A stretch of 60,306 nucleotides of DNA, the filler included, from Sluysia triapertura (Eukaryota): the NCBI GenBank assembly GCA_046118255.1. It is 5 parts of 5 records of this genome, joined end to end, with 100 filler letters (N's around TTAATTAATTAA, not from the genome) between each part and the next. Parts side by side here need not be neighbours in the genome. Positions count along the whole stretch, not along the records: positions 12,556 to 24,822 come from JBJNIA010124302.1; 4 more parts are not named here. One strand, 5' to 3'. Under the pieces are notes generated by a model. It was not told the origin of the DNA, did not search any database, and saw nothing but the letters and a program-made list of their open reading frames with translations. How positions within the stretch are numbered: the stretch's first letter is position 1; every line of letters starts with the position of its first letter. Of the stretch, positions 343-58,929 are shown in pieces. The position numbers and the translations under genes are program-made.

Positions 343-678
343 TTAAAAATGTTTCATAAAATACCTCATCGGTTGGGGTAAAGAATATCTTTGAACAGGT
401 CCATTAGAACATGACATATTAAAATCTCGTGATCTTGGTGAAGCAGAAGTTTCTGGAGGTTTCGGCGATTCGGGTGTGTCTGGAAGTGTCCGAAGTGGTT
501 GGCGACACCAACCACAAATTCGACCATTATTATCAAATTGTTGCTGAATTACGGGATTTTCCCGCATAAATTTTACCCATATATTTTCGGACATTTGTCC
601 ATTATCCAACACTGGTGGTGGTGGTAACGGCAATCGTTGTATTAGCTCCGCCATCCATTTTTTAGAGTCGCCGTACAT
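343..678 (-). CDS. Small orphan ORF, 111 aa, Pro-rich, with a CGWC motif
   Basis: ATG-to-stop ORF that is clearly GC-richer than its flanks, with protein-like composition; no family recognised. Confidence 0.5.
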   Translation of the reverse strand: MYGDSKKWMAELIQRLPLPPPPVLDNGQMSENIWVKFMRENPVIQQQFDNNGRICGWCRQPLRTLPDTPESPKPPETSASPRSRDFNMSCSNGPVQRYSLPQPMRYFMKHF

Positions 679-2460: not shown

Positions 2461-4644
2461 GGGTAAGAATGACTTTGACAAAGATTTTAGTATGGTTCTG
2501 ATTAAATAGAGCCGTTGTATATAAAAATAATTTTATTGAGGTTCTTAGTAAACAGAACCTATTTATTACCAAAAATTCAATTTTTTACTGGTTTCCTATT
2601 AAATGAAACCTTTAAGAGATTAAATGAGATTTTAATAAGATTTCTATTTAAATGAAACCTTTGCAAAACTAGGTATTTTACAATATTAAATAATACAATT
2701 AAGAATTAAAAAATTTATTCACTTAAAAAAATTTACACTGGGTAAATAAAAATATATAACATTAATATATAAAAAACAGATTGTATTTTATCGGGATTAT
2801 CCGTGATAATCCTATGGCTAATTATTTTAAAAATTAATTTTACTACCTATCAATTTAAAAGATAGGATTTTAATATAATTGAATTAGTTTAAGTAGATTT
2901 TATATGTAATCGTTAAATGATTATAAAACTTAAATAAAGAAAACTAACGATTATTTCTCTCTTTAATTAAATTTTCCGAAAAAACAAGCCAAAAACAAGA
3001 TTTATAAAATTGTATTTACTGTTGTGTTCATTGGTCAATTTTTATATTTAAATAATTGTGACCTTGAATATTAAGGTGGTAAAACAATATTATTTAAAAT
3101 GAAATATAAAGTATTAATATTATTTAAAATATTACTTATTAAAAATATTACTTATAAATATTAATATTATTTATTATTAAAAATATTACTTTATATTCAC
3201 AATTATCAAGACATTAATGCAATAAATAAAATAGATTAAATATTAATATTATTTATAAATTATCAATAAATTAAAATATTACTTTATATTATCAATCAAT
3301 AAATTCCAAATGCAGACACCAAATTAAATATATAAAAACTATACTATAAATAAAATTTATATACATACATAACAAATAACTATAAATATTTACAATTGTA
3401 AAGAAAAAACTTTATTTAATTTATACATCCCATCAAATTTCTCAATTACTGAACATATTTCTTTTCTATCTGTATGTATATTAGTGATAAAACAATTGTT
3501 TAGAAAAAATCGTACTGATTAATCGTATTGTTAATATTTTGAGTCAAATCGGTTTATGATTTGCATTGTGAATTCATCTCCTATGGTAGAGATAGAAGTG
3601 AAGATTTTAGTCGTTACTACATTAAATATCAGACGTATTTTAATTTTTTACAAATTTTAGTTTTATATTATTTAAAATTTTGATATTGTACTTACTAAAA
3701 TAGCCATAATCAGTATTAAAAATAATTTGTAATTAGTCTTAAATACTCTGATTTAGCTGAATTAAATTGTTTCTAATTTATTATTGATTCTAAACATTCT
3801 AAATCGACTTTGTTATGTTTGTATAACTGTTATATATATTATAACCAATAAAATTTTCGTTTCCATTCTAAAATAATTTTGTTTTAATCATGATTTTATA
3901 TTATTATATTATACATGTATTATAGTGGTTATATGACCAATTTCATCGATATGCTTGTTTTCTTCTACATTCATTTCTATTTTAATAAAATAGTATGTTT
4001 TTTTATTTCTAGCTTTTTCCGTTTAATCCCTAACTTTATTTGCTAATTAATTGTACTTATTATATTCAGTTTTTGGTTTTATTTTATTCACTTCTTAAAT
4101 TAAGCATTCTTTTAAAAATATTTATTTCTATATTTATAGCTTTATTTTATTTTCAATAGTAAAATAAATTTAATTTAATTAAGGTAGAAAAATTAAAACA
4201 TTCGAGAAGCAAAATCATTTCGTTTTCTTTTTTATTTGTACTTTATGTTTGAAGGATAAACATTGTTTTAGCATTTAATCAATATTGTTTGTTCTTCGCT
4301 GTTTAAAATAAAAACAATACATTATTTAGCTTTTTAATGCTAATGTTCTTTGCAAAGAGGACGAGAGAGTTCGTTATCAATTGGAGAACTTCTTGAAGAT
4401 TCTGAACAATTTCTTTTGGCTTATACTACGCATTTAAACAATAATATTAATAGTAATTAGTTAAAACAAAATTAGTTGCTTTAAATAAAATTTGGTTTGT
4501 TTTTCTATGAGTTTATGTTTTGTCTCTATCATATTTTTATTACACGAAAATGATCTATACTTTGTTAGAAAATTTATTAATGAAATTATTCTAATTTTAT
4601 TTAGATTTGTGTATAAATTTTATGTTTTACATCATCAATGGTAA

Positions 4645-4912
4645 TAATAATATATTAATTTATATTGCACTCGTATCTACTGCAAAATAAAGCGCTTAAA
4701 ATAAATCATTCATTATAATGTTTCTGAAACAGAAAGAACTTGAATATTTCATAATCCTCCAGTAATTTGACTTTTTCTCGTAACTGGTTTTTTATGTTTC
4801 AAAAAAAACCACAGTGGATTTTGTATAGATTATTATGTCTCGATGAAATATTCATCTTGGTTTCAAAATTTTTATTATTTCTCAGAAATATTTAGAACTT
4901 TCGTAATGTAAA
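4645..4912 (-). mobile_element. 3' fragment of the same L2/CR1-type LINE
   Basis: Colinear nucleotide similarity to 1390-1700. Confidence 0.8.
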
Positions 4913-5329: not shown

Positions 5330-5902
5330 AAAACATTTTGTTCAAAGATTTAAGTAAAGATTTCATTAAGAACAGTAATTCTAATGTTAAAAAGTGTAAA
5401 TATCAATTAAAGAAAGTATCAAATATTCGAAAATTTATTAATAAAGAAACGGCTTAATTTATTGTTCAATAATTTGATAACTAACAATTTAGACTTTAAC
5501 AATGGTTTATTGTACTCAATTTCATATAGAAAAGTGAAAAAATTACAATTAATAATTAATCAAGCAGAAAGACTAATTCTCCAAGTGACTGCCAATAAAA
5601 GCAAGAATAGAATTTAAAATCAGGACACTACGGAAGTCGTGAGTATCTCTTAGAAATAATTTAAAAAATTTGGAAAGAAAGATGAATATTTCATTGAGAC
5701 ATAACAATCTATACAGAATACAGCGATAATAGGTGATACGTTATAACTAAACTACCAGAGAATGTCAAATTACTGGAAGATTATGAAATGTTTAAGAAAA
5801 AGGCAATGTTCTTTGTTTTTCAGATATATTATAATGAATGATTTATTTTAAGCGCTTTTGAGTACTTACTTTTAGTAGATATGAACACAATATAAATTAA
5901 TA

Positions 5903-5940
<38 letters not shown>
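5330..5940 (+). mobile_element. 3' fragment of the same L2/CR1-type LINE with (ATT)n tail
   Basis: Reverse-complement match to 1390-1990 (e.g. TTAATAATTAATCAAGCAG), ending in about 13 ATT units. Confidence 0.85.
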
Positions 5941-10569: not shown

Positions 10570-11400
10570 TCAGCTTTACGGAAACCTAACTTTTTAAGGA
10601 CAGAATCAAGAACCAAGAGCTCCAACTACAAATACGTCTATGGAAACGGGACAGTTGAGTTGGTCTTGGAGTTTTTGCCTCAGGTCAGAATACATGGTTA
10701 TATTAAATGTTCGGGCTGCTTGAAAGTTTTTATAATCATCAATAGGGGATTTGATGTCTTTGAGAAACAGTTGTGAAGAATTATTATCTTGAATATCAGG
10801 TCGCCTGTAATCTCCAACCAGGCGGTTTGGTAACTTTTTTGACCGAGAAGCCCATTTGTTTTAGTTTACTAAATAAACATTCTAGAATTTTATTATATCT
10901 TACTGTACGGCCAGTCCTTGCATGTAGGCAAAGACAAAATAAATGAGCAAGAGTTTCGTGTTCGAAATCGCACCCACGACAAGTAAGAGGAAGATTAAGT
11001 CGAATGTTTTGGGAACACAAATTAAGTTTCCTGGCTTTAGTCATGAAAATCCAACGCAGGTTTCCTAATTGTAGGGGAAAAGGACGACCTGATAGAGGAT
11101 TTTTCATGAAACATTCGACAAAACAACCTTGGATTTCCAGGAATTAATGTTGATGCAAATATTTCCCCATATATTAAAAGTGACTTCGCAATCACAAAGG
11201 ATGTTACATTTAACATTCTTCATAATAAACGAATCTAACACTGATTTTATATTTTCGAACAGGTTAAGGATTGATTGGCGAATTTTTGCTTGTTTATCGG
11301 CTTTACCACCATTTAGCCACAGTAGGGCCTCAGAAATGTTAACAACCTTATTCAGTATGATTTAGAGGGTTGTGATAGCAATCCTTTTACTTTGTGATTC
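10570..11400 (-). mobile_element. R2/NeSL-like non-LTR retrotransposon remnant (zinc knuckle plus restriction-like endonuclease)
   Basis: CRGCDFEHETLAHLFCLC..RTVRYNKIL matches CxxC..ETLxHI..C..RHN; after a frameshift RRPDI..DIKSP matches the PD..D REL motif. Confidence 0.85.
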
Positions 11401-15909: not shown

Positions 15910-16081
15910 GTGAGATGTCAATTTCATATGATGATGGTGATGATGATGATGATGATTATGATGATTATGATTATGATGGTGATAATAACAAAGATGACGA
16001 TGATGAAAATGACGGTGATGATGATAATAATAATAATAATAAAGTAGTACAAAACATAATATACGAATTTGTTATATTTAG

Positions 16082-16656
16082 ATGACTCATACGATGACTC
16101 AGCTTCATCTTATGCCTCATCATCTCCGTCTCATTCTTCCTCAGCTTCTCCGAATCAAAAGCCACAAAAATCCTTGATTAATGATAGTAATAATGACAAA
16201 ATCGATACTGCACTTTTACCACCCCCAATGCCAGTTATTTCTTCTCCGTGGAAACTAACATCAACCTCCTCTCCAATATCATCATCGCCGGTCAATACGA
16301 TAGTAAGCATGGCATCACGTGATTCTTTGGTAACCGCCCACAGCGGTAGTCGCCTTAGTAATAACAAGTCTCCTAGAGATAGTGGTGTTAGTTCGCATTC
16401 CAGTAACACAGATTTAATTATTTGTCTAACAACTACATGTAACAACACCAATAACACGTCTAATATTAGTACCTCTACTAGTGGCAGCTTGTCTCCGACT
16501 ACTACTACTACAACAACGACGACGACAACAACAGGTCTAGCTCTAACTTCTGGAGATAAGTTAAAATTATCCAATCAGAAAATGGGAGCTTTGGGATTTC
16601 AGCCTATCAAAAATGTACTACTCATCCATAACACAACATGTATAAATAATAGTTAG
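16082..16656 (+). CDS. Ser/Thr-rich exon (possibly terminal) of the same host gene
   Basis: TTTAG acceptor at 16081, in phase with the upstream exon; ~190 open codons with elevated GC. Confidence 0.65.
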
Positions 16657-16909
16657 ATATTTAATGTGCATAGGAAACTTTGTAAATCTAATTTTATAAT
16701 TATTATGATTTAAAATGAATTCAAACGTAAACAATTTTTAATGAACAATCCTACTGTCTATGGGACGACTTTTTATATATAATATTTATCTTTTGAATTA
16801 AATTTTATAAAAGTAACTCCCTATTTTAAAATAACTGCAGTTTCTGATTTAAATATAATTTATACGATTAATAAATGCATGTACTTTATTTAAAATTCAA
16901 TATAGGCAC

Positions 16910-17480
16910 TATCATACGCCATCAATTTTTCAAGCCGGCCAGGAATCGTACACTTGATTTCACAAGAAACTCTTTCTGGATGAAAGCCATAACTTCACGT
17001 ATTCGCTCTTCATGTTCTTCCAAATTTCTTGGTTTGATTGAGTAGACTTGCTCTTTTAACGCCAACCCAGAGAAAAAAGTTGCGTGGTGTTAAGTCAGAA
17101 CATCAGGCTGGCCATTCTTGTGAACCATGATGGCCCATCCATCTTCCAGGAAATTTATTCATCCACGCACGAACAATGATAGCAAAGTGTGGAAGAGCTC
17201 TATCTTGCATGAAAATCAAATCTTCAATTTTGTCCCAAGCACTGATAATTGGTCAAACTTCATCTCAACATAGTGAGGTACCTTTCGGCATTCATAGTAT
17301 CACGAGGATGAAGGGACCTGTGGTCATGAGTTTTTCGTGACATTTCTTGATAGTCGTTGGGTCAATTTGAGCATGTTTTCCTTTAATTGTTCTTCACTAT
17401 CTTTGCACTGGAACAATGGATCTCCAAACTTCGTAACTTCGTGAAATAGACTTGCTAACTTCATGACCAAGCTTGATTTT
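16910..17480 (-). mobile_element. Decayed Tc1/mariner-superfamily transposase
   Basis: LIFMQDRALPHF..VRAWM..FPGRWMG..EWPA*CSDLTPRNFFLW..LKEQVYSIKP matches QDGAPPH..FPGRWIG..WPPRSPDLTPxDFFLWG. Confidence 0.88.
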
Positions 17481-17934: not shown

Positions 17935-20025
17935 CAAATTACTGAGATGGGAATAGATGTAATGAGCTTATTAAAATAATAAAATAATTTATCGATTATG
18001 TCAATTATCAACTAATGTAACATCTTTACCAAAGGTCTTGCATCATTCAATATAGCATGAAATGTTCTAAGCTACTCTAATTTTTCTTCTGGAACTTGGT
18101 GGACAAATAAAAACTTTAGTTTCAATTATGAATATTGTAATTAAGCACATTTTGTACCTTGAAATTAGTTGCTTTTTCTTTGACACTTGATGAAGTTTTG
18201 TGGTGGTATGGTATGATTTACATAAGCTAAAAGTTTTATTTTGACGATACATTGATTTTATACGTTGTAAGGTAAAAAATTCTTTAATCTTTCTATTTAA
18301 ATTTAATTCAACTTTATCATCAATAGGGAAAACAATAAAATTAACAAAGTTTTTATTAGAATTCACAGAAAATTAACATTTTTTTAAAATTCTTTTTTTA
18401 ATAATGTTCTCCCAAGTATGTTTTAATTTCAATCCGTGGAAGATTCTAAAAAAACAAAAGAATATACTTGGGCATCAATATTAATAATAATTTTATAAGT
18501 ACGATTAAATTTAAAGATAACTTTAAAGTAATTTTTGTGGACAATGTGATCTTGAATTACCGCGAAGAGTAACACTGAAGGAGTCAGTCTAATGAGACAG
18601 CAATTGACCAGACTTGTGTCCCTGATTGCAAGTAGTTATCGTCGAGAATTGGGCCGAGGTGTAGAATCGATTAATGAGTAGCATTTGATTAAGTGTACTG
18701 AATGATTGCCAAGTTTGAGTTGATGTTTTGGAATTATTGTTTATATCTGACTTAACCATTTAACCACAATTTTCATCAAAGAGTATGTAACTTGAGAATT
18801 TTCTTCTCCTCTAGAGTCATCATTCCAACATCTGGTTAATTCTTTATTTAATTTCTCTGGACATAACATCGAGTGAGGAGCGAGAATATCGAATGGTTCC
18901 TCAAATTGTTTGTTTCTGCATAACATTCTTGGATATTGACAATTAATTTAGAAGTTATTATTGTGTCTTCATTCACTAAGTAAGCTGTTTTAACTAACAT
19001 TAAAGCTCATTTGAAATCCTCAACTAAACCTCATATTTGATTAATGTCCTTATCTCTCCTAGGACCTGTGGCAGATTGTTCGTAGTCATTATCGTAATTG
19101 GAAATTGTCAATGATGGCTTGAGAAACATAAAATTCGATGCATCGTCATCTACATTGAATTGATAAACAAAAGGATCCTGATTGCATTCGAAGCAAGCAT
19201 ACTATAACTGTGATGCATATCTTTATTCGTTTTGCAGATAACTTTAGTATCTACATTAATGAAATACGAATAGAAATTGTTCATTGCAGTATTGGTAGAA
19301 TGACTATCGTCCGAGTGATGTTTCAAACATATCGAAAGTGGAATCGTTAACTTGAATCGTACATCTTAATGATATTACGCACAAGTTTAGTAAGAATTGT
19401 TCAAGATCATCAAAATACGTTGAATTAGTTTTTGTGAGATATTCCAAAATAAATCTTTGTAACTCATGAGTTAATTTGGATGAATTCTGTAATTCGTTGG
19501 TAACTTCTTTTTCATCGGTTTTATGATTTTCTTCTTCATACAAACTACGCAATCTATAAACATCAGTAATAATAAACAGCAACATTTTCAACACACTAAA
19601 TGAAACACCTCGTGTTAAAGACACTTCAGTTAACTTTTCTTTTATTACTTTAAGCTTTGTAGACAAATTTTTAGCATAATTAATAACAATTAATGAGGAA
19701 AATTCTAAATAGCTTATTTCATTCAGTATAATTTGCAGCCAATTTGATTCATTTATTAATACACTTTTATTCATTCTAAGTTTTCTAACCACTGATCGGT
19801 TTTTTAATTTTATCTATTTACTACTAACTCTTTTTAACAATTTACTGAGCTATTTGTAGGTGATTTTCATTGGCTGCTCAACCAGAAGGATAGATATATG
19901 AAAACAGCCAATGATGGTACAGAAAATTGATTGCTATTGAAACTTTAACCAATATCAATGATGGCAACAAATTACAAACGCGAATTAACAGCGTCACCAT
20001 TGATAGTGGTAGTTACCACTGAATG
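17500..20025 (-). pseudogene. Orphan-cassette family copy A (fragmented ORFs 19304-19792, 18741-18926, 18067-18366) with 5' inverted-repeat module
   Basis: TYKIII..SFVFLESSTD*N*NILG at ~18405-18500 aligns with TYKLII..NFIFSELDAAWMVKRVG of the intact copy; inverted repeats at 19867-19914 and 19948-20010. Confidence 0.7.
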
Positions 20026-20080
20026 CTATTTTTGACGTAAAATAATAGTGATAATTAATAATGATAATAAAAATGGGTGA

Positions 20081-20141
<61 letters not shown>

Positions 20142-22034
20142 TTTTATATTCAACGTGATCTCTCTGTTAATTCTTTTATTTCTTGACATATTTGAAATTC
20201 TAAAAATGGCTGATAAAATATAGATCTAATGTTGAGGGTGCAAGAATGGTTTAGAGGATGGCTTGAATGTTTTCTTTTGTGATGTACGTGGTTGAATATT
20301 AAAGAATTTCGAACTTGAAGTGTTTTAGATTACTTTGCACTTTACGGTATGTTATATTTCTACAGTTATGAAATTTTGAATAGAATGTTTTGGTTGAAGT
20401 TATTGTACGTGAGTGGTTTTGAATGAAGGTGCAATTTTAACGTAACAAAGTAATACGTAAATGTTTTAAATGAATTTTTAAGTGCGATTTAATGGCTTTA
20501 ACTGAAGATACAGTTTGGATGTTGAAAACTTATGACTTGAGTGTTTTGAGATAATATATAGATGTTTTATGTGAATTTTTAAATATGCATTGACGTTTTG
20601 GAACTTGAAAATATATTGAAAAGAGAATAGTTTAGTGGATCTGAAGGAGATAAATTATAGCCCAAGTTTTGGTACATTCTAAAAAGGTAGTTGTGCAATG
20701 TTGACAAATATGATTTTGATTATGTTGATGTAAGATTATGTGTAAGAATGTTTTAATGAGTTTTTAAAATGTGCCTTGTAGATTCTGAAAGTGAATGTGG
20801 TTTTGTGTGATGTTAGAATAAAATTTGTCACAGTTTTACCATGATCTCCCAAATGAATAAAAGCTTTAACAGTATCCAAAGCTCAGCAAATTTGTTCACG
20901 TTAACATTACATTTGTCTGAAGATAGTCTTATGTTGGTCTGATTTGCTGGATTTGTGGCTGCGTGTGGAGGTTTTCTTCGTAATCCGGTAATTTTTTTAG
21001 CTATACGCGCTTCATACGAATCTGTGCATCGTGTATAAGAGAATTAGAAAGAAATAGAAGGAGAAGTGAAAATGAATAAAAAAGAGTTATAAAAGAAAGT
21101 TAGTGAAATTGAAGATGCTTCATGTTGTGGATGGCCTTGCGGCTTTTAATATGTTTTCGATACATTTCGGTCGTTTCTAATATGAATTTAATATACAAAT
21201 TTATACATAAAAGTTTCAGAAGCATAGCCTTTAATTGTTCACCTGGGTACCAGATGTAGATAACAATTGAGAGCTTAAAAGCAAGTTTAGTGTGATAGAT
21301 AGTGTCACATATATCTTTAATTAGAAAATTTGTGTGGATGAACTTACATTCAAGTTCATTCGTTATAAATTTTGAAATCTTAATGCTTAGTATATTGCAT
21401 TGAATTTGAATATAAAAGCTCGCTAATTTTGCGTGTGATATAGGTTCCATTACATTTATTATAATCATAGAGATGAATTTTAAACTTAATTTTAAATTTA
21501 TATGAGATTTATGATCATCATGTTCGTCATAGGTATTGTAATTAGTCACACATACTATCTCAACTTTATCCATGAACTTTATCTTTGACATATGATTAAG
21601 GAGTAGAAAATTAAGATCATTACTTGTTTTTAAAAATTTAAAAGTAAATTTACTAAAATAAAACATATAAACATGTATTCGAATAGGAACTAAAATATTT
21701 TCATTATTTGAAATTTCGCATTCACCTTTGACTCTTTTCGCGATCTAGATTGTGTTTAGTTCTAAAAGAATGAAACTATTGTCAATAATAAATCTATAAA
21801 TAACATAATAGTTAAAATAAAACAAATTTAATGTTACAGAATTACCTTCGGGTAAACATAGCAAGAAGTAATCGACATCCGTTTTGTTTCTTTCGAAATT
21901 TTCCTTATGAACGTTGTAATTAACATTGGATGTTAGATCATACTCTTGATTGCAATCTGATTGATAAAAACCATTGTTTATTTTTATTAATCCTCTAATA
22001 ACATAACAGATACAAGTGTCCATTTCTTTTACCT

Positions 22035-22440
22035 TGGATTCATCATTATTTCGTAAGATAAAGTCAACTGAAACCATTAGTTCTCTCATGTTTGATTGAT
22101 CATCATTTCGTAAAATTGCGTCGCAGGAAATCGTTAGTTTTATGAACTTTACAACATCATGATTCTTAAGAAGGTTTACTTACTTCATTTTTGATTCATC
22201 ACTAACTTGTAAAATTGCGTTACATGAAATTATTAGCTTTATGAACTTTATAACATCATGATTCTTATAAACGTTTACTTGCTTCATTTTTAATTCATCA
22301 CTATTTTGTAAAATTGCGTTACATGGAATCATTAGTTACTTCATTTTTGATTCATCACTATCTTGTAAAATTGCGTTACATGAAATCATTAGCTTTATGA
22401 ATTGTTTCATTTTTGATTCATCACTGTCTTGTAAAATTGC
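22035..22440 (-). repeat. Six coding tandem repeats (AILQDSDESKMK-type) in copy B
   Basis: Units of 22, 19, 33, 33 and 19 codons plus a diverged sixth, all frame-preserving. Confidence 0.9.
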
Positions 22441-22552: not shown

Positions 22553-22735
22553 CCCAATCAGAGCGCTGATATTTACATTTAGTAATTTAGTTAATTATGC
22601 TCTGATTGGGTCTTGCTAAACAGGTAGTTTACCGATGAAACAGACAGAACTGATGGCTAACCACCATCAAGGCTGACAGCTCAATGTTAACATGAAATGG
22701 GCTGTCAGCATTGGTGGTGGTAGCAACCAGTGTTA
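22553..22735 (-). promoter_or_regulatory. 5' module of copy B: inverted CCAAT-box pair plus long hairpin
   Basis: CCCAATCAGAGC (22553-64) / GCTCTGATTGGG (22599-610); arms 22660-22683 / 22698-22721 are 21/24 complementary. Confidence 0.8.
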
Positions 22736-22924
22736 TCAACAATTTTTAATTTAAATTTAAATTTTTATATTTTTAGGTATCTGGAACNNNNNNNNNNNNN
22801 NNNNNNNNNNNNNNNNNNNNNNNNNNNNNNNNNNNNNNNNNNNNNNNNNNNNNNNNNNNNNNNNNNNNNNNNNNNNNNNNNNNNNNNNNNNNNNNNNNNN
22901 NNNNNNNNNNNNNNNNNNNNNNNN

Positions 22925-23834: not shown

Positions 23835-24563
23835 TTAGACATATGTATTTAAATGTACATTAGATTCATTGTCAATGGACTGGTTGTTAATATCGTTATT
23901 AATTCTTTCTGCTGTGTTGGTATTAAAAGTAACTCTTGGTTTTATAATGTATGGAAGAGTTGTCACAGTATTAAGGTTAGAATGGGTGTTGATAGCTGTA
24001 GATGGTTGCATTGTGTTTGATAAATTTGATATTGTTGTAATTAATGATGAAAGTGTGGAAAATGTCTGATTAGGATATTGGAATTTTAAATTAGAATCGG
24101 CATTTAAACAACAACATGGATCAGAACAGGAAAATGCAAGTGGCATTTGAAAAATATTATTAACAAGAGGTAAAGTAGATGAATTAGGTTCTTTGTAATG
24201 TGCATTGGAATTTTGTGGAGTGGGTAGATTAGAGGTATATGGATCACCAGAAGTTGTTGGAGTATCAAGATGAATAATATTTGCATATTGAGATGAAGAA
24301 GTAGAACTAATTAATTGATATGGGATGCTGTTTACAGACAGAAGCAATTTTGGTGGTGAGAAACCTGGGGATAATACATTTATTTCATGACTGGAAGATG
24401 AGGTACCAGGAGGATTATTAGATTTTATGGGTGTCGATGATAAAAGTACCAAATCAGATTGTTGCTGGGCATAAGGATTGGGTTGAGAGTAGGAAGAAAT
24501 GTATGGACCAACGTTTGACTGAACTTTGGACCAAGGAACGTCTCTTATATTAACTTGAATACT
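23835..24563 (-). CDS. Probable terminal exon of a host gene, Ser/Pro/Asn-rich (~242 codons)
   Basis: TTAACAG acceptor at 24564-24565, phase 0 and in frame with ORF 23835-24452; open to the stop. Confidence 0.6.
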   Translation of the reverse strand, partial: SIQVNIRDVPWSKVQSNVGPYISSYSQPNPYAQQQSDLVLLSSTPIKSNNPPGTSSSSHEINVLSPGFSPPKLLLSVNSIPYQLISSTSSSQYANIIHLDTPTTSGDPYTSNLPTPQNSNAHYKEPNSSTLPLVNNIFQMPLAFSCSDPCCCLNADSNLKFQYPNQTFSTLSSLITTISNLSNTMQPSTAINTHSNLNTVTTLPYIIKPRVTFNTNTAERINNDINNQSIDNESNVHLNTYV

Positions 24564-24569
24564 CTGTTA

Positions 24570-24620
<51 letters not shown>

Positions 24621-24922
24621 TACAAATTTTGTAAGATTGCAAAGTTAAACTAATAACTTAAATAATTACTCATTTATTTTTATATTAAAATGCTAATGGA
24701 AAATAAAAAATATAATTAGTGGTAAATATAAATATTTAATCACATATTACAATAAAATAAAATTAGAAATTAATCGTAGCGCAATAGAATCATAAGAGAC
24801 AATAAAATTTTTATAATACTAANNNNNNNNNNNNNNNNNNNNNNNNNNNNNNNNNNNNNNNNNNNNTTAATTAATTAANNNNNNNNNNNNNNNNNNNNNN
24901 NNNNNNNNNNNNNNNNNNNNNN

Positions 24923-25068
24923 ACCTGTCAGCCTTGATGATGGTCGGCCATCAGTTCTCATTCTTCATAATAGTGGTGACAAACATCATCACCATAAATA
25001 GCTAGTATTTTCTTTTCGCCCAATCAGAGTCAATACAATTTTCATAACTAAGAATACTCTGATTGGGC
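24923..25068 (+). promoter_or_regulatory. 5' module of copy C (truncated by gap)
   Basis: CTGTCAGCCTTGATGATGGTCGGCCATCAGTTCT matches the reverse complement of 22646-22679; perfect 13-bp inverted repeat GCCCAATCAGAGT / ACTCTGATTGGGC. Confidence 0.85.
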
Positions 25069-40224: not shown

Positions 40225-40400
40225 AGGCAACCAATGTAATTCTTTAAGATAAGGTGTTATATGAGATCTTCTTCCAACTTGGAGAATTAGTCTTGTTGCT
40301 TGATTAATTATTAATTTTTTTTCACTTTTCTATCTGAAATTGAGTACGACAAACTATTGTTAAAATCTATGTTGCTAGTTATCAATGAGTGAACAATAAA
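40225..40400 (-). mobile_element. Internal fragment of the L2/CR1-type LINE
   Basis: Close nucleotide match to 1738-1915. Confidence 0.85.
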
Positions 40401-42623: not shown

Positions 42624-43368
42624 CAGTGTTCGATAATCTACCTCCGGCGAAGGGATTTTTACAAGCTTATGAAGATATTTACCTGGCCAGTGACCGAACG
42701 ATAATATATTTGATAAACAAAAAATTGTTTTAATATTCATTAAAATTCAATACTTAAATTAACCCATGAATTCAAAGATGAAGAAAGTAGATGGCGAGTG
42801 CATAATTTTTCAAGATATTTGGACGTTTGATTATTTTTTTGTCGAGCAAAATGGAAAGCCAACATGTCTTATTTGTCTTGAAAAGGTTGCTGCGAATAAA
42901 GTGGCCAAATATCAGGCGCCGTTACATGACCAACCATTTTGAAAATTTTTAAAAAAATTAAGGATAGATGAAGGAAAATAAGTGAATGTGAAGCGAATAC
43001 CCGTGCAAGCTGTGAAGTGTCAAGACGTATCGATGAAAAGATGAAACCGTTTACGGATGTGAATTTGTTAATAATAGTGGTGGATATTGTTTGCCCAGAA
43101 AAAAGTCACTATTGTCTACCTGGTAGGACTGTTACAAGACGCATTGAATAGATGTAATCAGATGTTGAAAATTGTTTAATGAACACTTTCAGCGAATTGC
43201 TATATTTTTTAATTGCAGTTGATGAGAGTAAAGACTTAAATGACACAGGTCAGTTTTCGTGCGAGGAATGACTTCGAGTTTACATGTTTTTTAAGAATTT
43301 ATTCAGTTAATTCATTTGAAGGTTACAGTTACTGAAGCAGACATCTTTGATGCTGTTCTAACTACATG
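42624..43368 (+). mobile_element. hAT transposon (GTF2IRD2/EPM2AIP1-like transposase), 5' part, decayed
   Basis: KKVDGECIIFQDIWTFDYFFVEQNGKPTCLIC; IAVDESKDLNDTGQ; VTEADIFDAV; starts with a CAGTGTT-type terminus. Confidence 0.9.
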
Positions 43369-45029: not shown

Positions 45030-45570
45030 ATCTAAGGGGTTGTACCACCACACACCGGCAATGGCGGGAAATAAAAAAGGCTTTGTTGCACTATTACAGG
45101 AACACAAGGAAAATCTTGGAATTCCACAGAAGATGGTTAACATTCATTGTATTATTATTCAAGAACGTAATGTACACTATTATGAAAGTTGTTAATCTGA
45201 TCTTATCTCGTGGATTAAATCATTGCCAATTTAGGCAATTTTTGGTGGATGCAGAGGCTGAATATGAAGACCTATTTTTCTAATGTTCGCTGACTAAGCA
45301 GAGGTTCAGTAATTGTAATTACCCTTCAAAGTCAATTCAGTGGATGCATCACATTTTCACGATCCTCATTGGCTTGCATCTTTGGCATTTCTTATGGGCA
45401 TTACGAGTCATTTAAATAACTTGAATTTACACATGCAAGGTAAAGCTCACCTTATAAATGAAATGTGGGAATACCAACATGAAAATTATGCAAATTTTCC
45501 ATCCCTTCAAGAATACAAAAAACAAAATTCAGAAATAATTTGTGAATATAATCAAAGATATGAAAATTGA
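45030..45570 (+). mobile_element. hAT transposase, continuation of 42624-43368
   Basis: PAMAGNKKGFVALL; IHCIIIQE; VVNLILSRGLNHCQF; WLASLAFLMGITSHLNNLNLHMQGK. Confidence 0.9.
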
Positions 45571-45574
45571 GTTT

Positions 45575-47397
45575 ATGGTATAAGGTTTCAAACACCATTT
45601 TATAGTGTAAATTTTATAGTACTGATTTATGAACGAATATATTATATGACTTGATTTATTAATTGATTTTATAATAGAAGGTTTATATTTAATCCTTACA
45701 CAAAGAATGTTAAGATATATGATTATAAGTGTGATGAAAGGTAAAGTTGAGGGCGCATTATCACATTCAATAGAACATTAGAAGCTGAATGGAAAATTGA
45801 AAGTATAATAGATGAATTGGATTTATAATAGTGTCCAGCATGTTATTCTCTTTACTCAATGCGTTTCTTAAGATTATCTCAAATTCTTTAATAAAGTGAC
45901 GGTAATTAGTATTGTCACTAATATAATGATTTGTAATTATCAATTCTTTTAATTCTATAATCATAATACACTTGCATCTTATAATTTCGTATTTGGTTTG
46001 ACATAGGAGTTATTTATAGATAATATATTTATATAAGATTTAAATGAACAAAGAATTTTAAAATACATTAAGCTTATATTTAAAAGATTTTTATTAAAAA
46101 CATGAACATTGTAAAAGTCTTCTGATCTGACCGCCCAGCGTTCCATCTTCCAATCTAAAATTGATTTAACTAAAAAATAATGATATAAATAATTAAATTC
46201 ATAACTAACAGAACAACTAAATAATTCTACACTGGAATAAATACTAATGTTAGTCGAAAGGTCGTGAAACAAACTGATCCTATTTATGTTTAATTCCTTG
46301 TTGCCATTATTAGTGTTTGATAAATCTCTATTCTTAGATAAATAAATTTGATATATGTCATCCAAATTAACTTTATGATTATCAGAATTGCATCTATTTT
46401 GATTCAGCATAGTTAGTAATTTTTCTTTGTTTCTGGTTTTGTCTAATTTATTTAAACTTAGTATCATATAGGGATTTCGAGTAATATGAAATGGTTCATC
46501 TCCATCAAGTACCAATAAGTTATATAACGTTCCTTGAATGACAATTATTTTTGAAATTAGCATTTTACTTTGTCAAATAAACTTTACAATCTAATTTTCT
46601 TGATTTGTCTATCAGAATAGAATCTAATTTATCAACATCATTTGTATAAAAATCGTCAGTGTTATTATCTTCGAAGCTTCGAATTGGAGTTCTTGCATTA
46701 TCGCTTAACAAAATGTGTTCGCCTAAATTACATACAATGATATACTTTTTATTATCTCGATTATCCTTTAAGTACTCACTACTAAAAACCATTAAACTAA
46801 ATTTATCAATTGCATTCTCTGAACATTTATAACTACTGTAATTTAACTGATGATAAATTTTACTACCGGACGATTTATTAATTTCACGATTTACTTTATA
46901 AATAGAATGAATAATGTTTTCAAGCATGTTCGATTGATTCGTTAAATTGGAGTGTTCAATTAATTCGTAATTTACATATTCGTCTGTCTTTTCCGTCTCG
47001 TCTAAAAAATTATCTAATATCATTATTCATCTGGATGTGATCATAGTGACTTGTAAACGGTTGAATGATAATGGTCTGGATGCTTTCTCTGGAATTTGTC
47101 TCATTTTGCTGTCTGGAATTGTATATATTGAAATTTTGATTGTCTGCCGAATTTATTTACGTCTAATTTAGTTGTGAGTGATAGAAATTAAATTGTGATT
47201 TTTAGGTAGAAAAATGATTTTCAGACTGCCCAATCAGAGCATTCCATGAATATTAAGAGTTATATACGCTCTGATTGGGTGATAACACAAACTAATTTAT
47301 AAAGTAGATGTGCGACTAATTACCGTCATCGACAATGTCATTTAATTGATAGTTTGAAAGAGTATAATAAGTATCGATGACGGTAGTAACTATTAAC
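45575..47397 (-). pseudogene. Orphan-cassette family copy D (ORFs 46565-47023, 45979-46563, 45767-45964) with 5' module
   Basis: WAVR-x11-KNLL has the same spacing as WMVK-x11-KNIL in copy C; shared TGCGCCCTCAA near the ORF end; inverted repeats at 47229-47279 and 47321-47385. Confidence 0.8.
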
Positions 47398-48379
47398 TTT
47401 TAAAATTAAAAATTAATATATAATTAATAGTAATAATAATAACGACAATAATGATGATAACAATAATAATAACAACGGCAATAACGTTGTTATTATTATT
47501 GATATTAAAAAGAAAATTACATAAAATCTTTGCCGATCTTTTCTTTATCTTATCAATTCTCACATATAAAATGAAATAAAAAGAAAAGAAGCGAATGTTA
47601 TGCTGCGAAGGAACAATCGTAACTAAGTGTATAATGTATCGTTTGTGGTTGTTGCTTCGCAGTATGATAATGAAATCTTTGAAGTTTTGTTAGCTTTGTT
47701 TTTTTACAGATGTAATGATTTAGGTTGTAAGTGAAATGGAGTATGTTAAAATAATTTATTGAAACTTATTAAAGGTTTATAATTTGAAAACAAGANNNNN
47801 NNNNNNNNNNNNNNNNNNNNNNNNNNNNNNNNNNNNNNNTTAATTAATTAANNNNNNNNNNNNNNNNNNNNNNNNNNNNNNNNNNNNNNNNNNNNTGCAT
47901 TTTTAAATCTTGAATAAATCTTAACCCGTATTAAAAGTTTTTACATATGTTTTATTCATTTTCATTTATTATTCTTTTATAGGTTTTTAACTTCGAGTTA
48001 AACTTTTAGAAATTCAAATTAAATTTTATTAAATATAAATTTAATATAATTATTAAGCTCCAAGAATGTTTTTTGATGGTAATTAAATTTTAGCAATGGT
48101 AGCAATCTCAAACAAAGCTTTCAAAAATTTGGTAGAAAAATTATAATTTCAATGGTTATATTGTATTAATTATCATTATTTGAAATTATAATTTAATGTA
48201 AAATATTTAATTCATCGATGAAATAATAATTCAGATCGAAGTCTTGTAAATGCACGTAATTATCGACGAATAGTGCAAGTCACGGATGATGGTAATTTAG
48301 AAAATGGAAATAAGTTATATGTTAGCAGAAATTGTAGAGAAAGTTATTGTAAAACAAGTTTAGACAAAAAGAAATTTTG

Positions 48380-55943: not shown

Positions 55944-56225
55944 TTACGGTAATCCTACGTATAAGTCGCGCTTATCTGAGAATAAAAGTTGCTTTTTTAA
56001 AATCTTTCTGCGACTTATACACGGAATTTTAAACAGAAAAAAAACTTTAGTTTGTGAAAAGCGAAGTTTAACATAGTTTTTAAATAATGATTTAATAGGG
56101 TGACCTTTATAAAGTTAAAAAGAATCATTAAACTGACATATAAATGTATATTTAAATGTTTCCATGGATAAGCCGCGGCTTATCTACTGAAAAAGAACAG
56201 GTGTGGCTTATATGCGGGATTTTAA
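55944..56225. mobile_element. Tc2/pogo-like non-autonomous remnant
   Basis: Repeated TATAAGTCGC / GCGACTTATA / GCGGCTTAT subterminal motifs. Confidence 0.5.
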
Positions 56226-56643
56226 ATATACTTTATATAGTTTAACAGTGTCAATTCAAAAAATTAAAGAATGTAAATTTATAAATTCAAACATTTGCAA
56301 CTCTAATAGAAAAAAAATTGAAAGCATTCACAATATAAAATATTATACCTTAATTAAGATTTAAATTATTTGAGTTTATAATAAACGAATAATTATGATA
56401 TTAATAAGTAAACATTTACAGTTAATTATTGGCACAATTCACAGATTTAAAATAAAATATTGCTTAAGTATTTATTCCACTTTAATCACACTAATAAAAT
56501 ATTATATTTTATTACAACTTAAGTAAGTCATAAAAGTCGAATATTCAAAATCACTTGAACAGACCTTATTTGTTATTTACAAATGGCATAGCTAAGCAAT
56601 AAATTGTTTATGAAAGTTTAAAAACAGATTTTTTGTGTATTAA

Positions 56644-57550: not shown

Positions 57551-57987
57551 TTAATCAACATAAACCAAAGCTAACTCATCAATATAATCCAAATTATTGT
57601 TAGAGAAAGACAGCCAACAATTTGTAAGTAACGAATTTTCTTTGAATGAGGTTTGAGTAAAATTACTTTCGAAGAAGTCGCTAGAATCTGGAGATGACTC
57701 TAACGTTTGTGGCACATTATGAGAATTTAAATCCGATTTTACTGATGATATAGTATTAAACATTTTATCAATTTCCATTAATCTATTTTCTAAAGACGGA
57801 TATAGAGGAATATCTGATATGATATTGAAATCGGAAGTGGATAAAACCGGTGGTGGATAACCAGCAATATTGTGATGATGATGTGCTAAAAGACGATTTT
57901 GGTAATTGTACAATGGATTGGAAATTATGTTGATATTTGGTACAAAAAGTTTTTTTGAAAGAACTGGCTTCTGAATATTTGATATAT
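57551..57987 (-). CDS. Probable terminal exon of an unidentified host gene (HHHH, YPPPV, acidic Ser-rich tail)
   Basis: ~145 open codons from an AG at 57988-57989 to the stop; protein-like composition; acceptor is weak. Confidence 0.5.
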
Positions 57988-58929
57988 CTAATTCTGCGTG
58001 AGGATCATGCTATAATTATAAAAAGAATTAAGTTTCGATATTTTATTGATACTTATATATGTATAAAAAGTATAGTATCTCAAAAGTATCACAGCAAAAT
58101 GCGTTTTTATGGTTATAGATGACAAAATCTTGAAATATTTATATGTGAAGAAAAATTTTATATAATGAGCACTGCAAGGTAAACAAAGATATCTTTAAAC
58201 CGTAGATTAAGTAACCATTAAAGTTTGTTTATAATTTTAAAATCAAATAATACAGTCTAATTATCACTGTTCAACTCAATAACACCCATCATTGATTAAT
58301 TAACTTACTCATGCAATTTTCATAAAACTGTTCTTTTAGACATTTAATCCTTTAATTTCTGTTCTTTAGATAAGCTGTTGCTAACGTCATCTTCTAACCT
58401 CATAAATTTGTTTACAATATTAATCTGAATTCATAGTCTGATTATCATTAAAAAATTTATAAACACACAAAGCACAAATTTCCTGCTTTGGGAGTCGATA
58501 AACTTTTGTCTTTATGAGAACCAAAATTTAGATCCTCCATTGTCAAAACAAACTCATTTCTATCATAAGTGAAAAGGGACTTATAATTACCGAGTTTCAA
58601 AAATATACCAAAAGCATGAAGAAGCAAACGAATGCATTTCGAAATTATTTCCAAAATTATTTGCGATTTCTGACTCAATTAATAACTTAAAATATTATCT
58701 ATCAAAGATGGTCTTTCTGAAAGTTTTAATTTAAATCTCAAAATTTGTGGTACGAAATTTGAACTTTTTCTGTCATTTAAATTGCCAAACAACATATATT
58801 TTCTTCCACCTTAACGACTCAATATAAATTGGCAATATCGAATTGGATAAGAATAATGGGCCATTCTATAAAAAGTATTTTTTATAAAAACAGTATTTTT
58901 TACTTAGATAATGAAACTTGATCGATAGC

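Follow-up and report, generated by a model that had tools for sequence, protein, structure and literature searches.

The window, by which we mean the whole stretch of DNA analysed (60,306 nt, the scope of all counts given here), has a base composition of about 25% G+C and consists of five joined pieces of near-equal size, 11 to 12.5 kb each; besides the four 100-base linkers between the pieces, it contains two further gaps. At four loci on three of the five pieces, it carries a module made of an inverted CCAAT pair and a distal inverted repeat, each time next to a reading frame (module and frame together are called a cassette below). Copies A and B are arranged head to tail on one piece, two further pieces carry C and D, and B, C, and D are each less than 400 bp from a gap or linker. 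Every coordinate, span, and arm that an earlier sequence-only reading had given for these copies is present in the sequence. The linkers and the two parts of the module are as follows.

12456, 24823, 36115, and 47796: starts of the linkers, each composed of 44 N, a 12-base six-frame stop, and 44 N
19867-19876/19905-19914: CCAAT pair of copy A, perfect arms of 10 bp, spacer 28, flipped relative to B to D
19948-20010: distal repeat of copy A, span 63
22553-22564/22599-22610: CCAAT pair of copy B, perfect arms of 12 bp, spacer 34
22649-22747, plus strand: distal repeat of copy B, core 22660-22721, span 62, its stem long and, on the plus strand, containing G.T pairs
24923-24958, minus strand: distal repeat of copy C, inner arm alone, identical to B at 31 of 34 positions, the rest cut by the linker at 24922
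25018-25030/25056-25068: CCAAT pair of copy C, perfect arms of 13 bp, spacer 25
47229-47240/47268-47279: CCAAT pair of copy D, perfect arms of 12 bp, spacer 27
47321-47385, plus strand: distal repeat of copy D, span 63, the inner arm overlapped by a 14-bp repeat at 47315-47328

When the window was screened for inverted repeats with perfect arms of at least 9 bp and at least 4 G/C, six of the nine repeats found were parts of the module, while 10 block shuffles together gave 0 to 3. A covariance-model scan of the window returned, outside the three training loci, no match with an E value below 0.32. All four modules are tied to reading frames and no solo module was found, which within this window is the opposite of what a separate MITE, independent of the frames, would show. 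A MITE or other cut-and-paste element would be expected to have inverted repeats at both outer ends with target duplication, and to occur as solo copies as well, and the four modules do not follow that plan. The last exon of a ZIP9 gene lies at 34740-35090 (the top match is to the planarian Schmidtea at 75 bits, with residues in common with that protein, and the next two, one of them from a fly, score 73 and 69), and no other ZIP9 exon was found within 25 kb upstream, across the linker. Judged by this match, the host is probably a flatworm other than Schmidtea. Because this last exon stands alone, the pieces are probably not neighbors, and thus the module copies are probably dispersed on apparently unrelated scaffolds. 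The near-equal lengths of the pieces likewise suggest unplaced scaffolds strung together.

In the distal repeat, the ACC-to-GGT spans of 63, 62, and 63 bp in A, B, and D are as previously read, with a single arm in C, and the motif AGYWACYA follows in all three complete copies. The loops had been described as differing in sequence. They do vary, but a single gap suffices to align them, and 13 of their 41 columns are invariant (P of about 2e-5), including 6 of the innermost 24. This nearly gap-free alignment with a conserved interior indicates that the distal blocks of A, B, and D share descent. The claim that the arms covary is borne out in part: in 4 of 11 pairs both partners change, a count attained by 9 of 500 shuffles (slid controls gave 0 to 1), and, with just three sequences, this is suggestive rather than significant in a strict sense. 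Among the 15 possible pairings of the six arms, the true pairing is the best, and RNAalifold, unprompted, returns the same 11-bp helix from the three sequences, with two small inner helices that hint weakly at a branched end. An enclosing, AAV-type stem around the distal repeat occurs in B alone (one of three) and was rejected as a common feature. The distal stem of D reaches as far on the opposite strand.

The flip of the CCAAT pair in A, noticed earlier, is plainly seen, and change in the arms among B, C, and D does exist; however, it is confined to one column, so that the covariation proposed for these arms stands only in that limited form. In the most favorable frame, three of the 15 possible pairings do as well as the true one, and in three wider frames 5 to 12 of the 15 match or beat it. 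The boxes had been taken for NF-Y-type elements. The NF-Y logo, RRCCAATSR (PMC11802806; this and all other papers are cited from the part of their text that was accessible), fits two of the eight boxes, both in A, whereas the six boxes of B, C, and D carry C at position -1. We infer NF-Y binding at the pair from the motif; since the logo is matched by the two boxes of A only, the identical boxes of B to D may bind a factor other than NF-Y. When bacterial and archaeal genomes were scanned for the CCAAT pair, 2 matches turned up (0.7 expected), neither with a distal arm nearby. The spacer of B also contains a second copy-like GGTAG..TACC motif at 22625-22635, which forms a small hairpin, and C has a different small hairpin at the matching place.

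Every module is followed, 93 to 151 bp beyond its CCAAT pair, by an in-frame ATG directed away from the hairpin, and a frame of at least 150 codons is found just downstream at all four modules, compared with 3.6% of positions. The four frames, of which three (A, B, and D) are broken, are listed here.

18446-19774, minus strand: ORF A, ATG at 19774, 156 open codons and then decay (17 stops in 442 codons), orphan
21100-22410, minus strand: ORF B, 436 codons with three in-frame stops, homologue of ORF C
25219-26706, plus strand: ORF C, intact, 495 codons, intronless, apart from B without a homologue found
45979-47104, minus strand: ORF D, ATG at 47104, interrupted by one stop and by a frameshift, its two pieces 153 and 197 codons long, orphan

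The length of ORF C (495 codons) compares with a maximum of 138 in 500 shuffles. ORF B has in-frame tandem repeats near its start, with periods of 99 and 57 bp. The idea of one ORF family behind the four modules does not hold: only B and C align (z 41), and for the other pairs tested, drawn from A, B, C, and the two pieces of D, z values are at most 1.2 and 23 to 195 of 200 shuffles score as high. As far as alignment can tell, there are thus three unalignable orphan ORF types (A, B/C, and D) behind one end. A C-terminal likeness to B/C of D and of an orphan at 36748 was rejected because reversed controls score equally. Copies B and C are about 67% identical, and ORF B shows 42% identity to ORF C over the C-terminal part. 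Their differences are spread evenly over the codon positions (84, 79, and 77 of 230); nondegenerate sites differ at 143 of 424 and 4-fold sites at 8 of 31 (p=0.43). The two lineages carry 0 and 1 stops, compared with 5.2 expected per lineage, and of the five gaps in their aligned DNA, three have lengths divisible by three (39, 6, and 12), the others being 4 and 7. Judged by this comparison, the frame has been kept in B and C and the amino acids are without constraint, a pattern that looks strange whichever interpretation is taken. The possibility of an alternative genetic code was discarded, as all three stop codons interrupt frame A and ZIP9 ends in TAA.

Homology searches left the frames as orphans. 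For ORF C, no homologue was found among 8,000 scored candidates, in 1.84 billion representatives (with no usable Atlas match), or in phage genomes, and a B/C profile matched no PDB sequence. The Atlas matches of ORF A are at most 0.88, which is under the reliable range; the second D piece had no homologue among 790 candidates (longer proteins only), and the first D piece was compared with family libraries only. Pfam, PHROGs, and NCBIfam gave nothing credible on the cassettes, and Pfam was also run through the stops on nine selected stretches. Neither HUH and Walker A motifs nor Pfam matches were detected in the cassettes, and no Rep, helicase, or recombinase was found there. Two predicted structures (pLDDT 33 and 28) gave no usable fold, and the Foldseek list of the first model was meaningless. 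At the start of another piece, 36215-37800 on the plus strand contains orphan frames of 202 and 112 codons with a composition like that of the cassette ORFs; homology to A to D was not found for them, and they are possibly a fifth cassette with its module cut off.

On the outer side of the module, A, B, and D have a common 11-base motif beyond the distal repeat, followed by a T-run 5 to 13 nt later in all three. The features around this boundary, and those considered for the far side of the cassettes, are the following.

18411-18472, plus strand: inverted repeat with a span of 62 bp over the end of frame A, its sequence not related to that of the distal arms, of uncertain connection with the cassette
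20004-20033, plus strand: terminal motif of copy A, with a 7-pair mini hairpin at 20004-20021 and a T-run at 20029-20033, candidate element end
20041-20141, plus strand: (AAT)n tract just past module A, between cassettes A and B
22743-22747, plus strand: T-run of copy B, after the terminal motif
45895-45919, plus strand: far-end hairpin of copy D, its 10-bp stem including two G.T pairs, candidate asymmetric terminal repeat of the 5' end
47398-47401, plus strand: T-run of copy D, after the terminal motif
47414-47476, plus strand: degenerate (AAT)n just past module D

The terminal 12-mer is self-complementary at 10 of 12 positions in A and B and at 4 of 12 in D, where it is not palindromic. From the inner-arm repeat to the T-run, the distance is 69 to 76 bp in A, B, and D, and the true element end would lie at this T-run. 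An (AAT)n tract follows within 60 bp beyond A and D (background, 2.0%), while B reaches a gap after 55 bp. The (AAT)n of D also makes up a perfect 17-bp fold-back at 47461-47501, which looks like a template switch.

For the opposite end, copy D alone shows a partner. Positions 45897-45910, 68 bp from the stop of ORF D, are a 14/14 inverted copy of 47315-47328, that is, of the D inner arm and its flank. This match scores 27.7 bits and ranks second of about 119,000 positions; none of 322 control windows reaches it (maximum, 20.5), and it was one of eight tests. The hairpin there is equaled by 0 of 200 shuffles and folds better on the plus strand, even though stems of 10 bp that include G.T pairs are frequent (53 on the two strands together). 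G.T pairs favor the ORF-antisense strand both in the stem of B and in this hairpin. An open frame of 80 codons (46012-45769) spans the proposed far end. No such partner was found for A and B, whose scores are matched by 275 of 338 and 286 of 329 control windows. In C, the candidate is an 11/12 match at 28113 (18.3 bits, compared with 18.1 for the next background match), at which no hairpin holding the repeat was seen. Copy A has an 11-bp direct match inside its own ORF that scores 23.5 bits, so strong chance matches do occur. Local alignment of the cassettes revealed no common far end, by a procedure that is insensitive and overlooked the 14-mer of D.

Several features of the window lie outside the cassettes. 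A strong hairpin at 47596-47669 (z -5.3 as RNA, plus strand), 200 bp beyond module D and unrelated in sequence, matches no Rfam family at threshold and could be the end of a neighboring element or a small-RNA precursor. The interval 20142-21030, which separates module A from ORF B, shows a strong strand skew (21% G and 9% C on the plus strand) and no Pfam match; a similar skew is present at 47476-47795 and 36215-36750. Six fragments of one dispersed repeat (1370-1968, 4617-4911, 5406-5924, 32144-32237, 38233-38537, and 40226-40400) end in (ATT)n, and we take them to resemble the 3' end of an L2/CR1-type LINE. A 62-bp-span inverted repeat with further related motifs at 55957-56230 presumably resembles a pogo/Tc2-type subterminal region. 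Decayed transposon pieces are found at 10796-11143 (minus strand), 16900-17460, 42750-43300, and 45260-45570, with one zf-RVT match (E 0.006); some stretches among them we assume to be Tc1/mariner-like and hAT-like. Probable host exons, low in complexity and rich in Ser/Thr/Asn, are located at 16060-16656 (plus strand) and at 23835-24566, 57551-58009, and 343-678 (minus strand), and none of the four has a Pfam match.

It is likely that the module is the end of a mobile element of some kind. Its more specific interpretation as the end and inward promoter of a non-autonomous, cargo-carrying rolling-circle element is one that we favor tentatively and hold to be possible rather than probable. The sequence-only reading had proposed an element terminus fused to an internal promoter, and this remains the favored interpretation in view of dispersal, shared descent, covariation, and the association with ORFs; the terminus and the promoter activity themselves, as well as mobility, enzyme, strand polarity, and transcription, are what we infer from these features. 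Under this proposal, the elements would be about 1.5 to 3 kb in length, non-autonomous, and provided with one intronless orphan ORF apiece, the module being the element's 3' end and the ORF its antisense cargo. A Rep/helicase made elsewhere in the genome would nick near the far-end hairpin and displace the ORF-antisense strand; the 14-bp asymmetric repeat and the 63-bp hairpin would mark where copying stops, at the T-run; and the inverted CCAAT pair just inside the end would act as an inward promoter transcribing the cargo ORF. The end would be conserved because it must be recognized, while the cargo would have been exchanged or have diverged past recognition. The strong divergence of the copies (about 67% identity between B and C) argues against an active family.

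Among the closest described systems are Helitron2/Helentron elements (HINE, DINE-1, and FoHeli), a likeness that had been suggested loosely before and that works only if the module is the 3' end, with the other end seen in copy D alone. In the accessible descriptions, Helitron2 has an asymmetric repeat, hairpins at both ends, an ATTTT end, and a 3' end better conserved than the 5' end (PMC5148889); its ORFs may be reversed, its 5' hairpin holds the repeat, and the 3' copy is subterminal (PMC5148889, PMC4067079). In FoHeli3, an additional orphan ORF runs the opposite way (PMC4067079, PMC5148889), and hairpins serve generally as HUH recognition sites (PMC10288648). Copy D shares the 12- to 15-bp asymmetric inverted repeat and has, like these elements, hairpins at both ends, and the module shares the conserved 3' end closing in a T-run next to an ORF that may be reversed. 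Unlike these elements, the far-end repeat is seen in one of the four copies, and the distance from repeat to end (69 to 76 bp) exceeds the 38 to 60 bp of mite HINEs and the 38 to 51 bp of FoHeli (PMC4067079, PMC5148889). The cargo is a long orphan ORF and not gene fragments, and the 63-bp covarying hairpin and the inverted CCAAT pair do not appear in the accessible Helitron2 descriptions of PMC4067079 and PMC5148889. None of the 15 subTIRs listed in the accessible part of PMC4067079 matches the module when compared by eye, and five flatworm names gave no match in the readable text of its supplements. A term search of the open-access literature, as far as its text was accessible, found no description of the module. 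Membership in Helitron2/Helentron is therefore not established, the paired repeat being present in one of four copies and the spacing being longer than reported. Also expected of the group are a short palindrome near the 3' end, insertion into TT or T-rich DNA with no target duplication, and a Rep/helicase gene, carried by the element itself or by an autonomous partner with matching ends; here, T-runs stand at all three complete ends. Canonical Helitrons end at the 3' side in CTRR about 11 bp after a 16- to 20-bp palindrome; CTRR is absent after the terminal motif at all three ends.

Host promoter architecture, in which fast-evolving intronless host genes were duplicated while the CCAAT pair and palindromic factor sites were kept and the arms matched by local conversion, is an unlikely alternative that several observations nevertheless fit. 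In planarians, CCAAT boxes and A/T trinucleotide repeats are overrepresented in tissue-specific promoters (PMC10558129), and a pair of NF-Y-like sites marks a germline peak in schistosomes (PMC11398382). Likewise, the flatworm NF-Y promoters and the module share paired CCAAT boxes 93 to 151 bp before an ATG and A/T triplet repeats upstream, here the (AAT)n past A and D, and the ORFs are alike in size with a frame under selection, as the deficit of stops in B and C indicates. In contrast to such promoters, six of the eight boxes have C at -1, the boxes form perfect inverted repeats, and a covarying hairpin is linked to them. The fixed span and the covariation speak against host genes as well, since arms that change together are not predicted for a fixed host factor at two independent sites, as do the three broken ORFs, the lack of amino acid constraint between B and C, and the far-end repeat of D. 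Furthermore, four copies on three apparently unlinked pieces would imply a very high copy number if these were host genes.

Rather unlikely, in our estimate, is that the cassettes belong to a mobile system of flatworms that is multi-component and so far undescribed, be it a segmented ssDNA virus or a family of cassettes moved in trans, in which a common end and promoter would accompany many different orphan genes that keep their reading frames while the amino acids drift. The viral version, which we consider quite unlikely, takes the cassettes as insertions of a multi-part ssDNA virus (densovirus- or PEVE-like) with a common terminal hairpin and promoter, one gene per segment, and a replicase segment outside the window. 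Segmented viruses have a common end and different single ORFs of similar size, as do the cassettes; the head-to-tail arrangement of A and B and the weak hint of a branched end from RNAalifold on three sequences are also in accord with it. Flatworm genomes do carry densovirus and PIVE/PEVE insertions (PMC6880638, PMC3198968, PMC5013282, PMC13055364), the former with hairpin ITRs, 37-nt loops, and head-to-tail arrays (PMC6880638), and PIVE/PEVE-type elements have been described from them in PMC3198968. EmuDNV and the PIVE/PEVE insertions resemble the cassettes in a hairpin end beside a promoter, head-to-tail copies, broken ORFs, and frequent location at scaffold ends. However, the parvoviral likeness suggested by the sequence-only reading fails on two points, NS1 and paired ITRs: no NS1/SF3 helicase or capsid signal occurs in the cassettes, and no second ITR, second module copy, or common far end was found. 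The stems, at 11 to 24 bp, are much shorter than the 95 to 165 bp of tapeworm ITRs (PMC6880638); the enclosing stem is limited to B; the ends differ between copies more than segments of one virus would; and, unlike in EmuDNV, the promoter has a CCAAT pair rather than a TATA box, a TATA match being present in one of the four leaders.

More doubtful still are non-autonomous Crypton-like elements served by a tyrosine recombinase in trans, whose binding sites would be the arms and whose insertion would favor (AAT)n. Long hairpins and CCAAT-like motifs are found at the ends of some animal Cryptons. A Crypton insertion would be expected to show 4- to 6-bp terminal direct repeats or a microsatellite target. 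Microsatellites are the insertion sites of CryptonV families (PMC8869645), and two of the three testable ends, those of A and D, adjoin (AAT)n, B reaching its gap 55 bp past the module. Compared by description (PMC3212892, PMC13465315, PMC5753468, and PMC4455052, as far as accessible), CryptonV and CryptonA share with the cassettes asymmetric ends and insertion beside microsatellites, and animal Cryptons are without terminal repeats (PMC3212892). They differ in the tyrosine recombinase, as neither its R-H-R-Y motif nor DUF3504 was found in the cassettes (non-autonomous copies need not carry them), and in the spacer, which is 41 bp in the module and 6 to 8 bp in recombinase sites (PMC3212892); moreover, the far ends of A and D have no microsatellite of matching orientation. 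Finally, it is highly improbable that the distal hairpin serves as the precursor of a small RNA next to a bidirectional promoter. In favor are the pre-miRNA-like fold of B (-48.9 kcal/mol, z -7.6), the span of 62 to 63 nt, which is of pre-miRNA size, and the arm common to B and C (31/34). On the other side, stems are short and loops are large in A and D (z -1.9 and -2.8, same strand), the covariation falls on the putative seed region, no hammerhead or tRNA and, at the gathering score, no Rfam family was found, and the best sub-threshold Rfam match reaches 31 of 88 bits.

The module is a real, homologous cis-element that carries orphan genes, and it provides a precise probe for copy number, ends, empty sites, and an autonomous partner genome-wide. 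If a multi-component system is what it belongs to, the module would be the handle with which to collect the gene set and find the replicase. If the rolling-circle reading is true, it would mean that a flatworm lineage holds abundant rolling-circle elements that are invisible to homology-based annotation, and the end structure of Helitron2 would be extended. Each element, equipped with a promoter of its own and one long orphan gene, would then be a possible source of lineage-specific genes.
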